10,753 bases of DNA from Okeania sp. (GTDB taxonomy: Bacteria > Cyanobacteriota > Cyanobacteriia > Cyanobacteriales > Microcoleaceae): the NCBI RefSeq assembly GCF_035285525.1, contig NZ_JAYKGW010000185.1, positions 1 to 10,753 of the forward strand, given 5' to 3'. The translations under genes were made by a program, and so were the position numbers. A model generated the notes under the pieces. It did no database searches and was not told the origin of the DNA. It saw only the letters and a program-made list of their open reading frames with translations. How positions within the stretch are numbered: the stretch's first letter is position 1; the number at the start of each line of letters is the position of its first letter. Shown one piece after another: positions 1-10,753 of the stretch.

Positions 1-205
1 TTATGTTTTCTATTTGATTATTCTCAATAATATTAGAAATATTTTTCCTAAAAGTTTTACAGGCATAAAAATTAGCATCAATTGCCCAAACCAACTTAAA
101 TCCTGCCTTATGAAATGGTAAATCCATGCCTCCACAACCAGAAAATAAAGATATGATTTTTGGCGCTTGATTCCAATTTATCTTTTTTAAACGTTCAATC
201 AACAT
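1..205 (-). CDS. DNA (cytosine-5)-methyltransferase, N-terminal part only; the gene continues past the left window edge
   Basis: Reverse-complement translation from the ATG at 205..203 gives MLIERLKKINWNQAPKIISLFSGCGGMDLPFHKAGFKLVWAIDANFYACKTFRKNISNIIENNQIENI. LFSGCGGMDLPF..AGF is the FxGxG AdoMet-binding motif I of C5 methyltransferases, and the usual AIDxN..A..TF..N block follows. The frame stays open to the window edge, which explains its absence from the ORF track. Confidence 0.75.
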   Translation of the reverse strand, partial: MLIERLKKINWNQAPKIISLFSGCGGMDLPFHKAGFKLVWAIDANFYACKTFRKNISNIIENNQIENI

Positions 206-502
206 TTTATTCAAAAATAATACAACCAGATACAGGGGATTCTACTTTGGTGAAGTACAACCTACGCGAGTAAGATGCACAGTTCAAAAAAATCGCACTG
301 AGAACATTTAATTATTAATATCTGTACTTCTTATACTTAGAATCTACTGTATAGAAACCAATATAAATTAGAGTTTAATTTTCTGATATTAAATTGTTAA
401 TTTCCCTCAAATATACAGAAAATATACTAATTTTTCCAATTATAAACATTTATAGACAAGATTGCTGATCTAAGATATATTATATTAATAAAGTTAATAA
501 AA

Positions 503-1785: not shown

Positions 1786-2956
1786 AGAACGCCCCCAGTC
1801 AGTAGCAGAATGGTTATCTTATTTTACAGAATTAAAAAGTCAAAATTTAAAAGTCAAAAGTAATGCTTTCTTTACTGAAAATTTTGACAATACAATAATT
1901 TCCCAAGATTATTTGACATCTGAAAATTTGACGAAATCTTTTAATCAAACAGAAGTTGATTATAGAAAATTAGAGAATCTTTTAGCTGCCCGAAAATGGC
2001 AAAAAGCAGATGCAGAAACTAGAGAAATAATGCTGAAAATTTTAGACCGAGAAACTAGAGAATGGGGAACAAAAGCAGAAATAGAAAAATTTCCCTGCAA
2101 AGACTTAAGTATTATCGATAAACTTTGGATTAAATATAGTAATGGTAGGTTTGGTTTCACCGTTCAAAAAATAATTTGGCAGAATATTGGTGGTAAACCT
2201 AATGCTGACCATAATATTTATATCAGGTTTGCTGAACAGATAGGATGGCGACTAAATGAAAATTGGTTATCTTGGTTTGATTTTAATTTTAATATTAATG
2301 CACCAGTCGGACATTTGCCTTGTGGATTAGGGCGAGGAGTAATAGATTTTGGTATTGCTTTTTTATCTCGAATAGAAATTTGCGGACTTGAGGAACCGAA
2401 AAATATTCCTCTTAATATTGGCAAAGTAAAAATAGACTATTCTCGTCTAAGAGATTTTTTGTCAGCTCGAAATTTTCGAGAAGCCGATCAAGAAACTGTC
2501 GCTTTAATGTTGCAAGTAGTTGGCAAAAATAAAGACGAAAAATTGACTCTTTTTGATATAGAAACTTTTCCTTGTTTGGAGCTGGAGAAAATTAATCAAC
2601 TTTGGCTAAATTATTCTCAAGGGCGTTTTGGTTTTACTGTACAAAAATCTATTTATTTTCATGTAGAAAAAAGTATTGAGCAGAGGTTCGGGAAAAATCG
2701 TAAATATCACAAAATGATTTGGCAAAATTTTAGTGATGTTGTGGGATGGCAAGTGGCAGGTAAGATAAAATATTATAGTGAGTTTGATTTTAGTTTAAAT
2801 GCACCTTTCGGTCATTTACCTGTTTCATGGTGTGTCAAATTTAAAGTGGAAAAGTTTGGGGTAGGAGTCTGGCGAGAAACTTTTTTTAATCGTGTGAATA
2901 ATTGTTTGATTAATACAGGAAAAATCTATCTTAATGAAGTAGAAAAAAATCAATAA
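1715..2956 (+). CDS. 3' portion of the same kinase gene: end of the kinase C-lobe, a linker, and two tandem GUN4 domains
   Basis: Repeat 1 (about 1955..2380): YRKLENLLAARKWQKADAETREIMLKI...FPCKDLSIIDKLWIKYSNGRFGFTVQKIIW...IGWR...NAPVGHLP. Repeat 2 (about 2429..2899): YSRLRDFLSARNFREADQETVALMLQV...FPCLELEKINQLWLNYSQGRFGFTVQKSIY...VGWQ...NAPFGHLP. Both match the GUN4 signature W-x-x-AD, FPC-x-DL, LW-x-x-S-x-GRFGF-x-VQ, GHLP. The M at 1715 in the track is a TTG inside the insertion and is not a real start. Confidence 0.85.
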   Translation: MAEQVRQLYRCQEAIVQGMAFHAEERPQSVAEWLSYFTELKSQNLKVKSNAFFTENFDNTIISQDYLTSENLTKSFNQTEVDYRKLENLLAARKWQKADAETREIMLKILDRETREWGTKAEIEKFPCKDLSIIDKLWIKYSNGRFGFTVQKIIWQNIGGKPNADHNIYIRFAEQIGWRLNENWLSWFDFNFNINAPVGHLPCGLGRGVIDFGIAFLSRIEICGLEEPKNIPLNIGKVKIDYSRLRDFLSARNFREADQETVALMLQVVGKNKDEKLTLFDIETFPCLELEKINQLWLNYSQGRFGFTVQKSIYFHVEKSIEQRFGKNRKYHKMIWQNFSDVVGWQVAGKIKYYSEFDFSLNAPFGHLPVSWCVKFKVEKFGVGVWRETFFNRVNNCLINTGKIYLNEVEKNQ

Positions 2957-2958
2957 AA

Positions 2959-3482
2959 AGTCGAATTAAAATTGTTAAAGGTGATATTGCTCAACAGAAA
3001 GTTGATGCTATTGTTAATTCTACAGACCGCGCTCTTTCTTCTGGTTCAACGATATCTTATTCTATTCATAAAATAGCTGGATTAGAACTTAGAGAAGCTT
3101 GTCTAAGATTACATGCTTGTCAACATGGGGAAGCAAAAATTACTAATGGTTATAATTTATTTGCTAAGTGGGTTATTCATACAGTTGCTGCTAGATGGCA
3201 AGGTGGAAGTTTAGGAGATAGAATACACTGATAAAATGTTATCAAAATAGTTTAGCTTTGGCAGAAAAATATGCTGTTAAAACTATTGCTTTTCCTCCTA
3301 TTACTACTGGTGCTTTATGTTTTCCGGTGGAAGTAGCGGCAAGAATAGCTATTACTGAAGCAATTGAGTTTTTGTTAGAATGTAAGTCTATTGAACAGGT
3401 GATTTTTGTTTGCTTTGAGGTTCGGGTTTATGAACAATATTTAGAGGTTTTTTCTGAAATATATAGATATATAGAGGGTTAA
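2959..3482 (+). pseudogene. Macro-domain (Appr-1''-p processing / ADP-ribose-binding family) gene remnant, with no start codon, a frameshift and degenerate motifs
   Basis: Frame 1, about 2959..3231: KSRIKIVKGDIAQQKVDAIVNSTDRALSSGSTISYSIHKIAGLELREACLRLHACQHGEAKITNGYNLFAKWVIHTVAARWQGGSLGDRIH-stop. Frame 3, 3222..3482: NTLIKCYQNSLALAEKYAVKTIAFPPITTGALCFPVEVAARIAITEAIEFLLECKSIEQVIFVCF. Together these follow the macro-domain layout GDIT..VDAIVNAAN..GGGV.GAIH..AG..L..C...GEA.IT.G..L.AK.VIHTVGP.W.GG....L..CY.NSL.LA......IAFP.ISTG. There is no ATG, GTG or TTG between the in-frame stop at 2935 and the domain. NAAN has become NSTD and GGGV has become SGST. Confidence 0.75.
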
Positions 3483-3730
3483 ATTTTCTGAGTGTTGCGT
3501 ATAGAGCAAGAGTAAATACATTTTGTGAAGCACCTCGCTATAGAGGGTGAATGATGGAATTTTCTGATTATGGCTCTATACTTTCTGGTTCATACATTTT
3601 GTGAAGCATCCCAATATGGAGGATGAATGGTGGAATTTTCTGATTATGGCTCTATACTTTCTGGTTTATATATTTTGTGAAGCACCCCGCTATGGAGAAT
3701 GAATGGCGCAATTTTCTCATTATGTTGGTC
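3482..3730. repeat. Tandem repeat, 76-bp unit, about 3.3 copies
   Basis: aattttct(g/c)attatgg... recurs at 3482, 3558, 3634 and 3710, an exact 76-nt spacing. a(c/t)attttgtgaagca recurs at 3518, 3594 and 3670. The array begins on the stop codon of the macro remnant. Confidence 0.85.
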
Positions 3731-3999
3731 AATATTGCACGAACCTTATATTTCTGAAGTTTTCGGGGAGTTGGGATGGGGGATTCCATTTAATATCCCT
3801 ATAATCTTATGTTGTATAATATAACACCCTCCTTGGTTTAGCACTATAAGTCTCTTATTGACAGGGTTCCAGGGTGTTTAAGATAGGGTGAATATCTGCC
3901 AAATTCCATCTAATCCTACCTGTTATACGGGCTGAAGGCTTAAACTGGTCAGTAATGCAGCCCATTTAGAAGTTTTTGTATATCACGCACTCAGCCGTG

Positions 4000-5452: not shown

Positions 5453-5608
5453 TTACAGCGATTTTTATTTCAGAAAACTACAGTAGGGACGTATGGCTAA
5501 CGCCAAGCTCCGCTAACGCTGGGCGACATGTAACGCATTTTTGTTATGCAACGTCCCTACAAAATTTTGGTTATGGCGATTAGTTTATCTATTTGAAAAC
5601 CACTGTAA
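5453..5608 (+). mobile_element. MITE-like element, copy L, with terminal inverted repeats and a central hairpin; carries a nested ~40-nt insertion
   Basis: The termini ttacagcgattttt (5453..) and aaaaccactgtaa (..5608) are inverted repeats. The central stem pairs gtagggacgt (5483..5492) with acgtccctac (5551..5560). Apart from the nested insert, it aligns along its whole length with the reverse complement of 8187..8302. Confidence 0.75.
5493..5534 (+). mobile_element. Nested ~40-nt insertion inside MITE copy L, containing a third copy of the micro-element core
   Basis: Copy L reads gtagggacgt-[atggctaacgccaagctccgctaacgctgggcgacatgtaac]-gcatttttg, where copy R (reverse complement) reads gtagggacgt-ta-gcatttttg. 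The core tggctaacgccaagctccgctaacgct matches tagctaccgctaggctccgccaacgct (757..783) at 22 of 27 positions. Confidence 0.65.
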
Positions 5609-5629: not shown

Positions 5630-6376
5630 TCAACAATGAAAAATGATGCTAGTTAGTTGATTTTCGACTTCATTCATATAATCTGTTAATCCTGTACTCA
5701 CACCTCTTTTTTGCAAAGTTTCCAAACTTGTTTCTTCCCAACATTTCCGTTCTCTTTCAAATTCTCCTCTTGTGAGTTTTTCCAGCACTATTTTAGGATT
5801 TCTCATCCGTTTAGTTTCTTCTTTTGAATTAGAACATAATCTATGAGATTCCTCACAAGGATCAAACTTTAATTCACTTTTAATCTCTTCCAGAATTTTT
5901 GCTTCTGATTTATCCAGCGGAATAAAACCATTCAAAACCCATGCTTCTCGGTTTCGGTTTGCCATTCCCATAACAATTTTAAATTGGCGATCGCTATATT
6001 CGGAGCGCACTTTTTCGATACTTTCTTTTCGCTCAGGTTGATCATCTAAATCGCGGATAAAGACAACTGCTTTAATTTGTCGTTGTCGCGTTTTTTGCAG
6101 ACAAGAGACAAATTTCAGAATTTTTTTTGCTGCTGCACCATCAGCACCTTTAGCACCACGAGTTTTAGGTATCTTAACACCGGAGTTCTCAATTATACGT
6201 TTAATATCCTTCCAACAGGAATATTCTATATTTTCTTCTAAACCGCTCCACTGAAAAAAGTCTTGAAGTTGTTCTTCTTCTAACCAATCGACTTTTTCCA
6301 GTAAAAGGCGATCGCCTAATTTAGTAGCAGTTCGTGCATCAGCTTTACTTTCTACAATCACAATACATTCATTCAT
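5630..6376 (-). CDS. Small TOPRIM-like protein (resembling DUF4276, RloB or DUF4435), a putative nuclease partner of the upstream ATPase
   Basis: 248 aa counted from the ATG at 6376. The track's longer start at 6391 is a TTG. A GAGGA Shine-Dalgarno sequence (6385..6389) lies 8 nt upstream of this ATG, and the ATG overlaps the ATPase stop as ATGAATGA. The motif order fits a TOPRIM-like fold: an early beta-strand ending in Glu (CIVIVESKAD), an acidic DxD after a hydrophobic strand (AVVFIRDLDDQ, nt 6041..6055), and a later Glu-Trp (NREAWVLNGF). The family assignment is a by-eye inference. Confidence 0.6.
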   Translation of the reverse strand: MNECIVIVESKADARTATKLGDRLLLEKVDWLEEEQLQDFFQWSGLEENIEYSCWKDIKRIIENSGVKIPKTRGAKGADGAAAKKILKFVSCLQKTRQRQIKAVVFIRDLDDQPERKESIEKVRSEYSDRQFKIVMGMANRNREAWVLNGFIPLDKSEAKILEEIKSELKFDPCEESHRLCSNSKEETKRMRNPKIVLEKLTRGEFERERKCWEETSLETLQKRGVSTGLTDYMNEVENQLTSIIFHC

Positions 6377-7499
6377 TTGTTTTTTCCTCAATTACCCAAT
6401 CTTCACCTTCAGCATCCCAAAATTCTCCAGTAGTTAAAGTTTGTTTTGCCCATTCAACATCTGGATGTTCATCTAATCTTTTGCAACAAGTCAATCCTGA
6501 ATTATTGTTAGTTAAAACATGAACTTGAGAGGGTGTAAGCTCATCAATAATATAAGGAGAATGAGTTGAAAAAATAATTTGTAAATTAGGATTCACTTTA
6601 ATAATTTCCTTAAAAACAGACATTAATTCTCGTTGTGCTTGAGGATTAAGTCCTTGCTCAACATCATCTAATAATACTAAATTAGGTGCATTTGGATTCA
6701 TTAAAACTGTCAATAAACCAAGAGCAAGAATTGTTCCTTCACTAATAGCATGGGCAGGAATTTTATCTCCACTCTTCATATCGAAAACTATTTCTTGTCC
6801 TGCCATCTCTTGACTTTCTTGGTAAGAAATAGATTTTCCATCTACTTCTATTAAACGTTGGCGATCGACTGCAACTTTAGCTCGTCTGATTCCAAACCTT
6901 TTGACATCGGGAACAACTTGTCGCAGCATTTCTTGCAAAGATTGAAATTTATCTGGTGCTTCGTTGCGCAAGTCATCTAAGTAAGGTGCTATCCCGGAAC
7001 CATTAAACTCAATTTGTGGTGTCACTGCTTCACTATAAGCAACTGTAGCAAGATTAGCAGCTATCAATTTCAAGTAAACTAAATATCTCCAATACTCTAT
7101 TACTTCAGAAGATACTAATGAGATTTGTCCATCTGAACGCTTATTTCCTTTGGGGTTTGAAAATAATATTGCCCGCCAACCAGAATCATCCTTTTTTCGC
7201 CAATCAAGAGTTAATTTACAGTTTTGTATAGGGTTATCTTCCAAAAAAATATTTACAGTAACAGATATCTGATTTTCTCCCTTTCTTGCTATAATTTCTG
7301 GGGAATTTTCATGTTTAAAAACGTCTTGAAATAATGAATTATTTTCCTGTGCAAGTCTGCTCAAATAATGTAATGCTTGTAAAACAGATGTTTTACCAGA
7401 ACCATTAGGTCCTACGAGTGCGTGCAGTCGGGAATCATCAAATTCAAGGTTTGTTTCTGGATGACTTTTAAAGTTATCTAGTTTTATTGTTTTTAACAT
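6369..7499 (-). CDS. ABC/SMC-like AAA_21/AAA_15-type ATPase (376 aa)
   Basis: The N-terminus MLKTIKLDNFKSH...LHALVGPNGSGKTSVLQAL contains Walker A (nt 7386..7412). Also present are a signature-like AISEGTILALGLL, Walker B LVLLDDVEQGLNP (nt 6657..6680 for LVLLDDVE) and the H-loop IIFSTHSPYIIDE. This layout is typical of the defence-associated AAA_21 ATPases (AriA, PtuA, AbiLi and the OLD N-terminal domain). Confidence 0.85.
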   Translation of the reverse strand: MLKTIKLDNFKSHPETNLEFDDSRLHALVGPNGSGKTSVLQALHYLSRLAQENNSLFQDVFKHENSPEIIARKGENQISVTVNIFLEDNPIQNCKLTLDWRKKDDSGWRAILFSNPKGNKRSDGQISLVSSEVIEYWRYLVYLKLIAANLATVAYSEAVTPQIEFNGSGIAPYLDDLRNEAPDKFQSLQEMLRQVVPDVKRFGIRRAKVAVDRQRLIEVDGKSISYQESQEMAGQEIVFDMKSGDKIPAHAISEGTILALGLLTVLMNPNAPNLVLLDDVEQGLNPQAQRELMSVFKEIIKVNPNLQIIFSTHSPYIIDELTPSQVHVLTNNNSGLTCCKRLDEHPDVEWAKQTLTTGEFWDAEGEDWVIEEKTNE

Positions 7500-7924
7500 T
7501 CAATTACTAACATCCTTATCATTGATAATTTCATAATTTAATTAAGCTAGTTATTCCCAAGTTAATATTATTTATACATTAAATTAACAGCAACAGAACA
7601 AGATTTATTAATACCTAAATAACTGTTAGGAGAAAGCCAATAATTTGAAATTATTCAAGAAAATGGGAAAATTATTATCACCAGCATTAAAAAAAATACT
7701 TTATATTTAAAATTTAGGTGAAAATTATGTAGAATATGATGTATAAAATAGCAAAAATATTTGAAGATATTAAGTTTGTTATTTGAGACTTATTTCTGAA
7801 TAAATCTATTAAGTTGTTTAACTAATAAATTTACTGTTTGGGAACGATTATTATTAACAGTATCGGGTTGATTATATTACAATACGGTTCAGTTAATATA
7901 GAATCCGGTTATATGCTTATCTTA

Positions 7925-8048
7925 TCTACACCAAGGAAGGTAGTAGAAGTATCCCCCCAACCCCCCTTTGAAAGGGGGGCAGAAGAGGAAAAATTAACTG
8001 AGAAGGTACAAAGTTTTTTATCAACTAATTATCTTGATTCTATTCTAG
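7925..8048 (-). repeat. Dispersed repeat with a C6-TTTSAAA-G6 hairpin, in inverted orientation relative to 8299..8423 and 8459..8557
   Basis: The reverse complement of atccccccaacccccctttgaaagggggg (7951..7979) is cccccctttcaaaggggggttggggggat, which matches 8392..8421 and 8527..8556. The flanks also align: the reverse complement reads caagataattagttgataaaaaactttgtaccttctc, against cttgataatcagcgataaaa..aaaacctttatccctctaaaac. Confidence 0.65.
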
Positions 8049-8186
8049 AATAAGACGAAAACTCATAAGATATAGCAATGTGCGCTGGCATGTTTACAAA
8101 TTGCAGGAAGTGTCCAATAGCTTCAAGTCTTATATTATAGGCAATTTATTCTCCCTGTTGCCTGCGCGCAGCGCTATATGGAACCA

Positions 8187-8302
8187 TTACAGCGCTTTTC
8201 AAATGGATGAACTATACCGCCATAACCAACATCTTGTAGGGACGTTGCATAACAAAAATGCTAACGTCCCTACTATGGTTTATTGAAATGAAAACCGCTG
8301 TA
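8187..8302 (-). mobile_element. MITE-like element, copy R, inverted relative to copy L and lacking the nested insertion
   Basis: The termini are ttacagcgctttt (8187..) and aaaaccgctgta (..8302). The central stem pairs gtagggacgt (8236..8245) with acgtccctac (8264..8273). Its reverse complement aligns with 5453..5608 at roughly 85 percent identity by eye. Confidence 0.75.
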
Positions 8303-8423
8303 TATCATATCTTGATAATCAGCGATAAAACTCCGTTCCGCTTACGCGATCAAAAACCTTTATCCCTCTAAAACAATATTCCCTCATGCTTCCCCCCTTT
8401 CAAAGGGGGGTTAGGGGGGATTT
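8299..8423 (+). repeat. Dispersed repeat unit with a C6/G6 hairpin, copy 1, carrying an extra ~21-nt segment
   Basis: tgtatatcatatcttgataatcagcgataaaa[ctccgttccgcttacgcgatc]aaaaacctttatccctctaaaacaatattccctc..cccccctttcaaaggggggttaggggggatt. The bracketed segment is absent from copy 2. Confidence 0.7.
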
Positions 8424-8458
8424 ATTCTACAGTCTAACGATTCAAAATTAAAACTATT

Positions 8459-8557
8459 GTATATCATGTCCGGATAATCAGTGATAAAAAACCTTTATCC
8501 CTTCAAAACAATATTCCCTCCTATTTCCCCCCTTTCAAAGGGGGGTTAGGGGGGATT
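8459..8557 (+). repeat. Dispersed repeat unit with a C6/G6 hairpin, copy 2
   Basis: tgtatatcatgtccggataatcagtgataaaaaacctttatcccttcaaaacaatattccctc..cccccctttcaaaggggggttaggggggatt is a direct repeat of copy 1. It ends about 70 nt before the groEL stop codon. Confidence 0.7.
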
Positions 8558-8627
8558 TCCTTTACTGAACCCTATTGTTAAATTAGGCTAACTTTAAAAT
8601 ATTAGACTTTGGGTTGGTAGGCAAAAA

Positions 8628-10360: not shown

Positions 10361-10380
10361 TTGGTGGAAACCGTACATGG

Positions 10381-10753
10381 GATAATGAATAATTAATAAT
10401 GAATAATTAGGGTTTAGGGTTTTTAGATAATATCAAATCCGGTAGTATCCGTTTAAATAAAGAATGTGGAAAATAATGAATAATTAATAATTAGGATTTT
10501 TGTATAATATCAAATCTGGTAGTATCCGTTTAAATAAAGAATGTGAGAAGTAATGAATAATTAATAATGAATAATTAATAATTAGGGTTTTTGGATAATA
10601 TTAAATCTGGTAGTATCAGTTTAACAAAGAATGTGAGAAGTAATGAATAATTAGGGTTTAGGGTTTTTAGATAATATCAAATCCGGTAGTATCCGTTTAA
10701 ATAAAGAATGTGAGAAGTAATGAATAATTAATAATGAATAATTAATAATTAGG
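10381..10753. repeat. Variable-length tandem array (77-nt and 90-nt units, at least 4.5 copies) upstream of groEL, running off the right window edge
   Basis: The core atcaaatc(c/t)ggtagtatc(c/a)gtttaa(a/c)aaagaatgtg(a/g)gaa recurs, with ggtagtat at 10441, 10518, 10608 and 10685 (spacings 77, 90 and 77). The units differ in the number of internal aatgaataattaataa and tagggttt sub-repeats. Confidence 0.85.

Follow-up and report, generated by a model that had tools for sequence, protein, structure and literature searches.

AbiL is a lactococcal abortive-infection system whose activity has been shown experimentally. The combination of an ABC ATPase with a TOPRIM protein has been described as HEC-01 (Hma-embedded candidate 01), which gave no protection in E. 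coli against the phages tested (bioRxiv 10.1101/2024.01.29.577857), and the small proteins RloB, DUF4276/Mad4 and HEC-01B have been placed in the Toprim superfamily (PMC12065111; bioRxiv 10.1101/2024.01.29.577857). Here, we have analyzed a stretch of 10,753 nucleotides (nt) from Okeania sp., a marine filamentous cyanobacterium (the whole stretch is referred to as the window), and in particular a cassette of two adjacent minus-strand genes that encode an ABC-type ATPase and a small partner protein. With modest confidence, we lean towards the view that this locus would be a functional two-gene conflict module (anti-phage or abortive infection) that combines an ABC ATPase with a Toprim-family nuclease, in which the partner would most likely be a Mg2+-dependent nuclease.

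The gene pair and its ATPase

Gene 1 (6369..7499, minus strand) starts with ATG and, on the basis of the list of open reading frames (ORFs) and of Pfam and PADLOC searches, encodes a compact ABC-type (SMC/Rad50-like) ATPase of 376 amino acids (aa). Gene 2 (5630..6376, minus strand) encodes a partner of 248 aa, for which the ORF list and an AlphaFold2 (AF2) model predict an N-terminal four-stranded alpha/beta (Toprim-like) domain followed by a helical C-terminal domain. The mechanically called frame of gene 2 reaches a TTG at 6391, and the family alignment places the N-terminus at the ATG at 6376. The two genes share an 8-nt start/stop overlap, ATGAATGA (6369..6376, minus strand), in which the ATG of gene 2 occupies 6376-6374 and the TGA of gene 1 occupies 6371-6369, and a GAGGA Shine-Dalgarno sequence for gene 2 (6385..6389, minus strand) is embedded in the end of gene 1, 8 nt ahead of that ATG. 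Such a coupled arrangement had been noticed in a first-pass annotation of the window, and it was confirmed here by the ORF list, by the sequence and by homologous loci.

The homologous loci fetched for comparison carry labels such as L001, and junctions and gene pairing were counted on 80 genome loci. An 8-nt RTGnnTGA overlap preceded by GGAG was found in 75 of the 80; because the same junction recurs in this way, the overlap is not due to chance and the coupling is a conserved trait of the cassette. The ATPase gene lay directly upstream of the partner gene in all 80 loci, and the pairing also held for two distant members (P0160 and P0140), whose partners were 36-37% identical to that of the window. 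The genes are inherited solely as a pair, and no additional gene recurred with them across the contexts of the 80 loci. Both genes are under purifying selection, with dN/dS values of 0.28-0.41 for the ATPase and 0.19-0.49 for the partner. As judged from the sequence, both genes of the window are intact and appear to be translated as a coupled unit. A scan for promoters and terminators around the operon gave nothing above shuffled expectation, so that no promoter could be assigned, and an Rfam search of the window gave no match.

Profile searches assigned the ATPase clearly to the AAA_21/AAA_15 ABC ATPases, with a predicted catalytic set that is complete and conserved. Pfam AAA_21 (PF13304) matched residues 25-319 with an E-value of 1.1e-30 (108 bits against a gathering cut-off of 27) and AAA_15 (PF13175) matched with 1.2e-25 (91 bits against 32); weaker similarity was seen to SMC_N, RecF and Rad50 heads in Pfam and NCBIfam, and Rad50 and SMC were among the PDB matches. 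In PADLOC, the best match was HEC-01A (PDLC04175; 1.2e-32) and 7 of the top 11 matches were HEC-01A profiles, followed by AriA (1.9e-29), PDC-M25A, mad3 (6.5e-26), AbiLi (3.6e-22) and PtuA (about 1e-20, partial). It should be noted that the PADLOC AriA profiles have the same lengths (304 and 373) as Pfam AAA_21 and AAA_15. All NCBIfam equivalogs for the ATPase were below their cut-offs (MAD3, 81 bits versus 420; PtuA, 62 versus 500).

Conservation of the ATPase was scored on 74 orthologues. The Walker A motif or P-loop GPNGSGKT (aa 30-37; 7389..7412, minus strand) had G30, G35, K36 and T37 conserved at 99%, and the ABC signature-like SEGT (aa 253-256; 6732..6743, minus strand) was conserved at 99-100%. 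The Walker B motif LVLLDD (aa 274-279; 6663..6680, minus strand) is followed by E281-Q-G-L in the D-loop region, with D278, D279 and E281 at 99-100%, and the H-loop STHSP (aa 311-315; 6555..6569, minus strand) contains H313, which was conserved at 100%. Taken together, the motifs were 97-100% conserved, and every position given for them in the first-pass annotation was correct. The ATPase had been remarked upon as unusually short; set against the HEC-01A profiles (363-406 positions), its length is normal.

The partner family and its relation to Toprim proteins

An exhaustive profile search over 1.84 billion cluster representatives showed that the partner belongs to a large family, which comprised 1114 clusters (50% identity) at E<=1e-3, of which 286 reached E<=1e-30; the matches were full length almost throughout, and an ANME-2 archaeon is the source of one named representative. 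Inside this family lies the well-conserved cyanobacterial clade of the partner, for which a search gave 428 matches; among those listed the identity was 55-83% and the length about 255 aa. No Pfam, NCBIfam or PHROG model matched the partner at threshold, its PADLOC matches were sub-threshold, and neither its sequence nor the profiles gave a meaningful match in PDB. The sole Pfam family touching the window partner was RloB (PF13707), with 18 bits versus a gathering cut-off of 31.5, and HEC-01B matched it in PADLOC at 1.2e-4, a partial match covering 70 of 192 profile positions. When 105 diverse members of the family were examined, three matched the Pfam RloB model, weakly; in PADLOC, HEC-01B and PDC-M25B gave scattered weak matches, in which the HEC-01B profile matched most often reached 14 members and the best E-value for any HEC-01B profile was 3.7e-7. 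Doubt had been expressed from the outset about canonical membership in DUF4276, DUF4435 or RloB, and this doubt was well placed, as none of the three reached threshold.

The same 105 members were used to score conservation of the partner. Six residues were invariant (E9, D13, D109, E144, W146 and K195), and D111, R108, R116, R208 and C212 were conserved in at least 90%. E9 belongs to the VIVES motif and stands after strand 1 (6350..6352, minus strand; strand at residues 2-8 in the model), the DxD formed by D109-L-D111 in the FIRDLDD motif ends strand 3 (6044..6052, minus strand; strand at residues 101-109), and E144 of the REAW motif, with W146, follows strand 4 (5945..5947, minus strand). Thus, the three acidic motifs picked out in the first-pass annotation are present, and E9, D109 and E144 are invariant. 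K195, R208 and C212 lie in a conserved helical domain that is C-terminal to the alpha/beta domain.

Several lines of evidence point to a Toprim-like fold. The AF2 model (pLDDT 88.8, pTM 0.86) has the element order b1-a-b2-a-b3-a-b4-a followed by helices, and a bona fide RloB modeled likewise had the identical b-a-b-a-b-a-b-a order. Toprim proteins are recognized by a Glu near strand 1 and a DxD after strand 3 (PMC12065111). In the model of the partner, E9 comes after strand 1 and D109xD111 at the end of strand 3, in the corresponding order of elements along the sequence. The four conserved acidic residues are thus modeled at the C-termini of strands 1, 3 and 4, which is the geometry of the Toprim metal site. 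Among 28 cyanobacterial members tested against Pfam and PADLOC profiles, the mad4 profile matched 21 (best 2e-6) and the RloB profile 5 (best 4e-6), and Pfam Toprim and DUF4276 matched one each (E-values of 0.15 and 0.09, respectively). We regard the partner as probably being a divergent member of the Toprim superfamily in a family of its own, distinct from RloB, DUF4276 and DUF4435.

Genomic setting and possible function

Comparison of the window with its closest relatives, two Okeania loci, showed that the nucleotide homology ends at the edges of the cassette (5639-7542 versus L001, 88% nt identity; 5686-7571 versus L002, 85%). The only exception was a 91-nt patch at 7788-7878, in which tblastn with the RloB proteins of L001 and L002 (68-71% identity, E 1e-7) identified the last 28 codons, that is, the 3' end, of an RloB gene (7793..7876, minus strand), a relic of an AbiL-like pair of an AAA_21 ATPase and RloB. 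In both L001 (2398-4324) and L002 (5545-7471), such a pair is intact beside the cassette, with an ATPase of 427-428 aa and Pfam E-values of 2.6e-51 for RloB (175 bits for the RloB of L002) and 1.5e-44 for AAA_21. An AbiL-like pair also adjoins the cassette in Trichodesmium (L090, 8854-10781, and L091), where both cassettes are decaying, with the ATPase split into three ORFs and RloB down to 74 aa, and where genes for TnpB, Uma2 and TumE lie nearby. Trichormus sp. NMC-1 occurred in the match lists of both the cassette and RloB (P0028 and P0386), so the same genome can carry both, which supports distinct, coexisting paralogous families.

The cassette was syntenic within genera and differed in context between genera. 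Its ATPase gene was disrupted (split ORFs or partial matches) next to an intact small gene in five loci (L030, L046, L052, L090 and L091), which one would not expect of a small protein that is strongly toxic when free. The cassette has the profile of a dispensable, occasionally relocating accessory unit of the chromosome, neither a classic resident of defence islands nor a core gene. The accessory location proposed earlier is therefore borne out by the varied placement among genera, the decay in Trichodesmium, the AbiL-like neighbor and an excision element that bears an integrase.

This element is the nifD element of Nostocales, in which the cassette directly follows xisA in at least 12 genomes. 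The order of genes is nifN-nifE-(Mo-nitro_C)-nifK-'nifD, then a gene for an xisA-like tyrosine recombinase, the ATPase gene and the partner gene (L044, 5017-18376; L055, L056, L057, L058, L059, L062, L070, L072, L077 and L079). An 11-bp core of the Anabaena nifD element, GGATTACTCCG, which is listed as the direct repeat in a table of Hilton et al. (2016), is located at the point where NifD homology starts in L057 (7106-7116), at 6756-6766 in L070, and altogether in 16 Nostocales loci, mostly at the corresponding site between nifK and the recombinase gene. In L044, two copies flank an interval of 13,349 bp that contains the cassette, and deletion of this interval in silico restored a frame of 503 codons corresponding to full-length NifD. 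An 'ATPase' with no known role had been reported as exclusive to six nifD-1355 elements (Hilton et al., 2016). L070 corresponds to the locus tag given there (Tol9009DRAFT_00060800) and to the coordinates of the element in Scytonema hofmanni UTEX 2349, and therefore that ATPase is the one of the present cassette. However, it is not exclusive to the element, as most copies were found in non-heterocystous genera. A role of the cassette in excising the nifD element was rejected, because most copies occur in such genera without xisA.

The position directly behind xisA, in an element of unknown selective value, would also suit an addiction or stabilization module, in which the ATPase restrains a toxic nuclease, loss of the cassette kills or arrests the cell, and the benefit goes to an element such as the nifD element. 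The tight translational coupling resembles the control of stoichiometry in toxin-antitoxin systems, and TumE and PIN genes lie near some loci. However, we consider this explanation unlikely: most copies (in Okeania, Microcoleus, Leptolyngbya and others) are outside recognizable elements, no plasmid copies were found, and in Trichodesmium the ATPase gene is a pseudogene beside an intact small gene, a state that a lethal free toxin would not tolerate. As an equally doubtful proposal that goes further, the cassette might represent a distinct, chromosomally entrenched ABC-ATPase/Toprim-like branch, with an effector family of its own (about 250 aa) and a new effector specificity, that in heterocystous cyanobacteria is carried as conserved cargo directly downstream of xisA. 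If this were true, the cassette, through cyanophage defence or addiction, could supply the long-sought benefit that explains the persistence of apparently useless nifD elements.

Some results weigh against a conflict module. First, the cassette is syntenic in about 25 genomes of Microcoleus and Tychonema, where its surroundings are fixed and of the housekeeping type, with a Uma2 gene beside it. Second, a census of 141 distinct neighbor families yielded mostly signaling, metabolic and Uma2 families, with restriction-modification (RM), AbiL, DrmMII, IetA and PIN components as single occurrences, and the distant members P0160 and P0140 are located among metabolic genes. Third, the partner family was not found on 72,556 plasmids or in 50,697 phage records searched with tblastn, nor in scans of PHROGs and IMG/VR, which is unusual for a defence system. 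Fourth, the HEC-01 pair gave no protection in E. coli, so even a match to it would not establish function. Finally, structure and profile comparisons of the partner gave little: Foldseek with the AF2 model had best E-values of 0.08 against PDB and 0.05 against BFVD with no Toprim protein among the top matches, and hhalign of the family profile against the RloB and DUF4276 alignments gave probabilities <2%. The comparison of the family profile with a single DUF4276 sequence was likewise non-significant.

The settings and the absence from mobile collections are features that a chromosomal DNA-maintenance or repair pair would share. Such a pair, similar to RecF and RecR, would act on host lesions or replication intermediates; it would fit the stable position within genera, the mostly housekeeping neighbors, the lack of the family in phages, plasmids and viral contigs, and the similarity of the ATPase N-terminus to RecF, Rad50 and SMC heads (TIGR00611, 5e-15; Rad50 and SMC in PDB). 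On the other hand, the distribution is patchy, with 162 matching stretches in the searched collection, which holds a single genome per species for 185,579 species, and the cassette has pseudogenised copies and occurs in an excisable element and beside AbiL-like genes. In addition, the dN/dS values are above what we would expect for core repair genes, which is an expectation of ours and not a comparison. A repair pair is thus quite improbable, more so than an addiction module. An assignment to RecF/RecR proper was rejected, as the TIGR00611 score was far under the cut-off (55 versus 172 bits) and covered residues 2-68 only, and the partner gave no RecR match.

The fold searches might be taken to suggest that the small protein is not a nuclease but a generic flavodoxin- or Rossmann-like ligand-binding protein or adaptor, the ATPase being the effector or recruiting one. 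Its best Foldseek matches were indeed lumazine synthase, RecA-like proteins and generic three-layer folds (E of about 0.1), and no Toprim-family model of Pfam reached threshold. However, the model of a bona fide RloB, used as a control, gave the same generic, non-significant matches (lumazine synthase, the 5im4 cage and RecA; best E 0.014), and the hhalign control, RloB versus DUF4276, gave a probability of 0.6%, which means that hhalign lacked power at these alignment depths. Because the RloB controls failed alike, the negative results of Foldseek and hhalign carry no weight and are uninformative rather than contrary. The local hhalign pairings, at probabilities <2%, were collinear with the motifs (RD.D with FDRD, REAWVL with FELWYL and VVcEa with VFvEGQ). 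Moreover, four invariant or near-invariant acidic residues are placed exactly at the Toprim-equivalent strand ends, and matches to RloB, Mad4 and HEC-01B recur across many members. A non-nuclease partner is therefore, in our view, the least probable of the explanations considered. As to the TOPRIM-like fold itself, which the first-pass annotation had proposed, the collinearity of motifs and secondary structure and the weak RloB and mad4 matches speak for it; significant support from Foldseek or hhalign was not obtained.

Under the conflict-module reading that we prefer, an ATPase dimer would serve as a sensor or regulator that binds the small protein, by analogy with OLD, Gabija, PARIS and AbiL. 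A trigger, which might be a phage protein, aberrant DNA or DNA ends, would change the ATP-dependent state, and this change would license the partner to cleave nucleic acid in a Mg2+-dependent manner. Either DNA, as for OLD and Gabija, or tRNA, as for AriB of PARIS, could be the substrate, and cleavage would stop phage replication or kill the infected cell. If active, the cassette would be a cyanobacteria-wide addition to the ABC-ATPase/Toprim defence class, with an effector family of more than 1000 clusters and no solved relative, in organisms whose immunity is poorly charted, including bloom-forming and marine diazotrophic genera (Okeania, Trichodesmium, Microcoleus, Nostoc and Dolichospermum). 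In addition, the unexplained element ATPase of Hilton et al. (2016) is identified here and given a role that can be tested, which links a classic developmental DNA rearrangement to the cargo of a putative conflict system. If inactive in defence, the cassette would be one more uncharacterised pair of the HEC-01 type.

The remainder of the window is rich in repeats and decayed genes. A MITE-like palindromic repeat lies downstream of the cassette (5454..5578, plus strand; with a 42-nt insertion) and another one, inverted relative to it, lies upstream (8218..8302, minus strand); they form the inverted-repeat pairs I2 (95%) and I3 (85%), and the internal stem reads GTAGGGACGT...ACGTCCCTAC. None of the 89 other loci that were compared contained the repeat, and exact copies of its 26-nt core were found on 109 metagenome contigs, the majority of which came from the project that gave the Trichodesmium contig. 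These repeats belong to a dispersed MITE-like family, and their bracketing of the cassette may be coincidental. We did not accept them as the ends of a composite mobile unit, an unsafe interpretation for a repeat that occurs on at least 109 metagenome contigs. The stretch at 2-241 (minus strand) encodes the N-terminal part of a C5 DNA methyltransferase, with LFSGCGG as motif I; the gene runs off the start of the window, 5.4 kb from the cassette, and no restriction partner gene for it is visible in the window. The methyltransferase and the MITEs had been cited in favor of an accessory region; both features are real, but this argument is weak as put forward, given the distance of the former and the genome-wide abundance of the repeats.

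The genes around the cassette in the window encode GroEL and a kinase and include a DUF924-like ORF (named by eye) and a split macro-like ORF. The Ser/Thr-kinase-like ORF (982-1785) and an ORF in a different frame that has two GUN4-like repeats (1715-2956; domains of both read from the translation) overlap, which suggests a frameshifted fusion gene, and near-identical short copies of the 5' end of the kinase gene just upstream (503-536 and 711-808; D6, 98%; D7 and D8) suggest a decayed partial duplication. The macro-domain-like ORF, also read from the translation, is split near 3225 into open frames at 2938-3228 and 3222-3479. It appears to have been split by a frameshift, consistent with the gene decay typical of the lineage. 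Three tandem units of 76 nt are present at 3516-3743, direct and inverted copies of the G/C palindrome CCCCCCTTTCAAAGGGGGG occur between the ATPase gene and groEL (7953-8565), and units of about 77 nt repeat at the end of the window (10376-10753); the intergenic DNA is repeat-rich.

Comparison with known systems

The pairing of an AAA_21/AAA_15 ATPase with a small protein bearing acidic motifs had been recognized in the first-pass annotation as the architecture of PARIS, AbiL and split OLD systems, and this agrees with the Pfam results (1e-30 and 1e-25); HEC-01 and Mad3/Mad4 share it as well. PARIS also has separate genes for an AAA_15/21 ATPase and a Toprim-family effector, and the two may plausibly share a logic in which the nuclease is released or activated by an ATPase scaffold (PMC11464382). 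However, AriA has coiled-coil insertions and a mass of about 53-55 kDa, compared with about 43 kDa for the ATPase here, and AriB is a 35-kDa protein with DUF4435. Moreover, phages or satellites often carry PARIS, whereas searches of phage and plasmid collections gave no member of the present family. PARIS was rejected as an assignment, because the partner gave no DUF4435 or AriB match at E<=1 in Pfam or PADLOC and the AriA match of the ATPase (1.9e-29) was weaker than that to HEC-01A (1.2e-32).

Resemblance to the OLD family (P2 Old, class 1/2 OLD and GajA) includes weak PDB sequence matches of the ATPase to the N-terminus of the OLD ATPase (6p74). OLD and GajA each combine an ATPase and Toprim_OLD in one fused protein, in contrast to the two genes found here, which have no helicase partner (GajB/UvrD). 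OLD and Gabija GajA were excluded on account of the two separate genes and the absence of a Toprim_OLD match. Septu was excluded as well, since the PtuA matches were weaker and partial (NCBIfam PtuA, 62 versus 500 bits) and the partner gave no HNH match.

The cassette resembles Mad3/Mad4 of the methylation-associated defence system (MADS) in combining an ABC ATPase (mad3, 6.5e-26) with a partner similar to a DUF4276-like Toprim protein (mad4 in 21 of the 28 members). MADS differs as an eight-gene system with mandatory mad6-8 and a methyltransferase; mad6-8 and the MADS methyltransferase were not recognized in the annotated contexts, for which mad6-8 profiles were not run specifically. Neither MADS nor DUF4276 (PF14103) was retained as an assignment: MAD3 scored 81 bits versus 420, and the single DUF4276 match among the 28 had an E-value of 0.09, compared with about 200 bits for true DUF4276 proteins.

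AbiL and the RloA-RloB pairs linked to type I RM systems likewise combine an AAA_21-type ATPase with a small protein of the Toprim superfamily encoded after it, and the ATPase here matches AbiLi at 3.6e-22. RloB and the partner have collinear motifs (E after b1, DxD after b3 and E-x-W after b4) and the same modeled order of elements, but the partner exceeds RloB by about 40 aa and has additional helices between b1 and b3 and a different C-terminal domain. AbiL proper and RloB were rejected, given the RloB score of 18 bits versus 31.5, the lack of an AbiLii match and the 175 bits of the true RloB of L002. Since the cassette and the AbiL-like pair coexist side by side in L001, L002 and L090, they are distinct paralogous systems.

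HEC-01 consists, like the present cassette, of an ABC ATPase and a small Toprim-like partner; the HEC-01A profiles span 363-406 positions, compared with 376 aa here, and the partner and its relatives match several HEC-01B profiles, weakly. The differences are that the matches of the partner are marginal and partial (1.2e-4 for that of the window, 3.7e-7 at best in the family) and that no Hma (helicase-methylase-ATPase) host system was recognized among the annotated neighbors. The idea of a possibly undescribed subtype was overstated, considering that PADLOC already lists the class as the candidate HEC-01 and that the ATPase was noted in nifD elements in 2016. On the basis of sequence comparison, the architecture belongs to a well-known class whose nearest catalogued relative is the PADLOC candidate HEC-01, and what is new here is the large partner family not captured by Pfam, NCBIfam or PHROG, the conservation of the cassette across many cyanobacterial genera, and the presence of the cassette as conserved cargo beside xisA in the nifD element.

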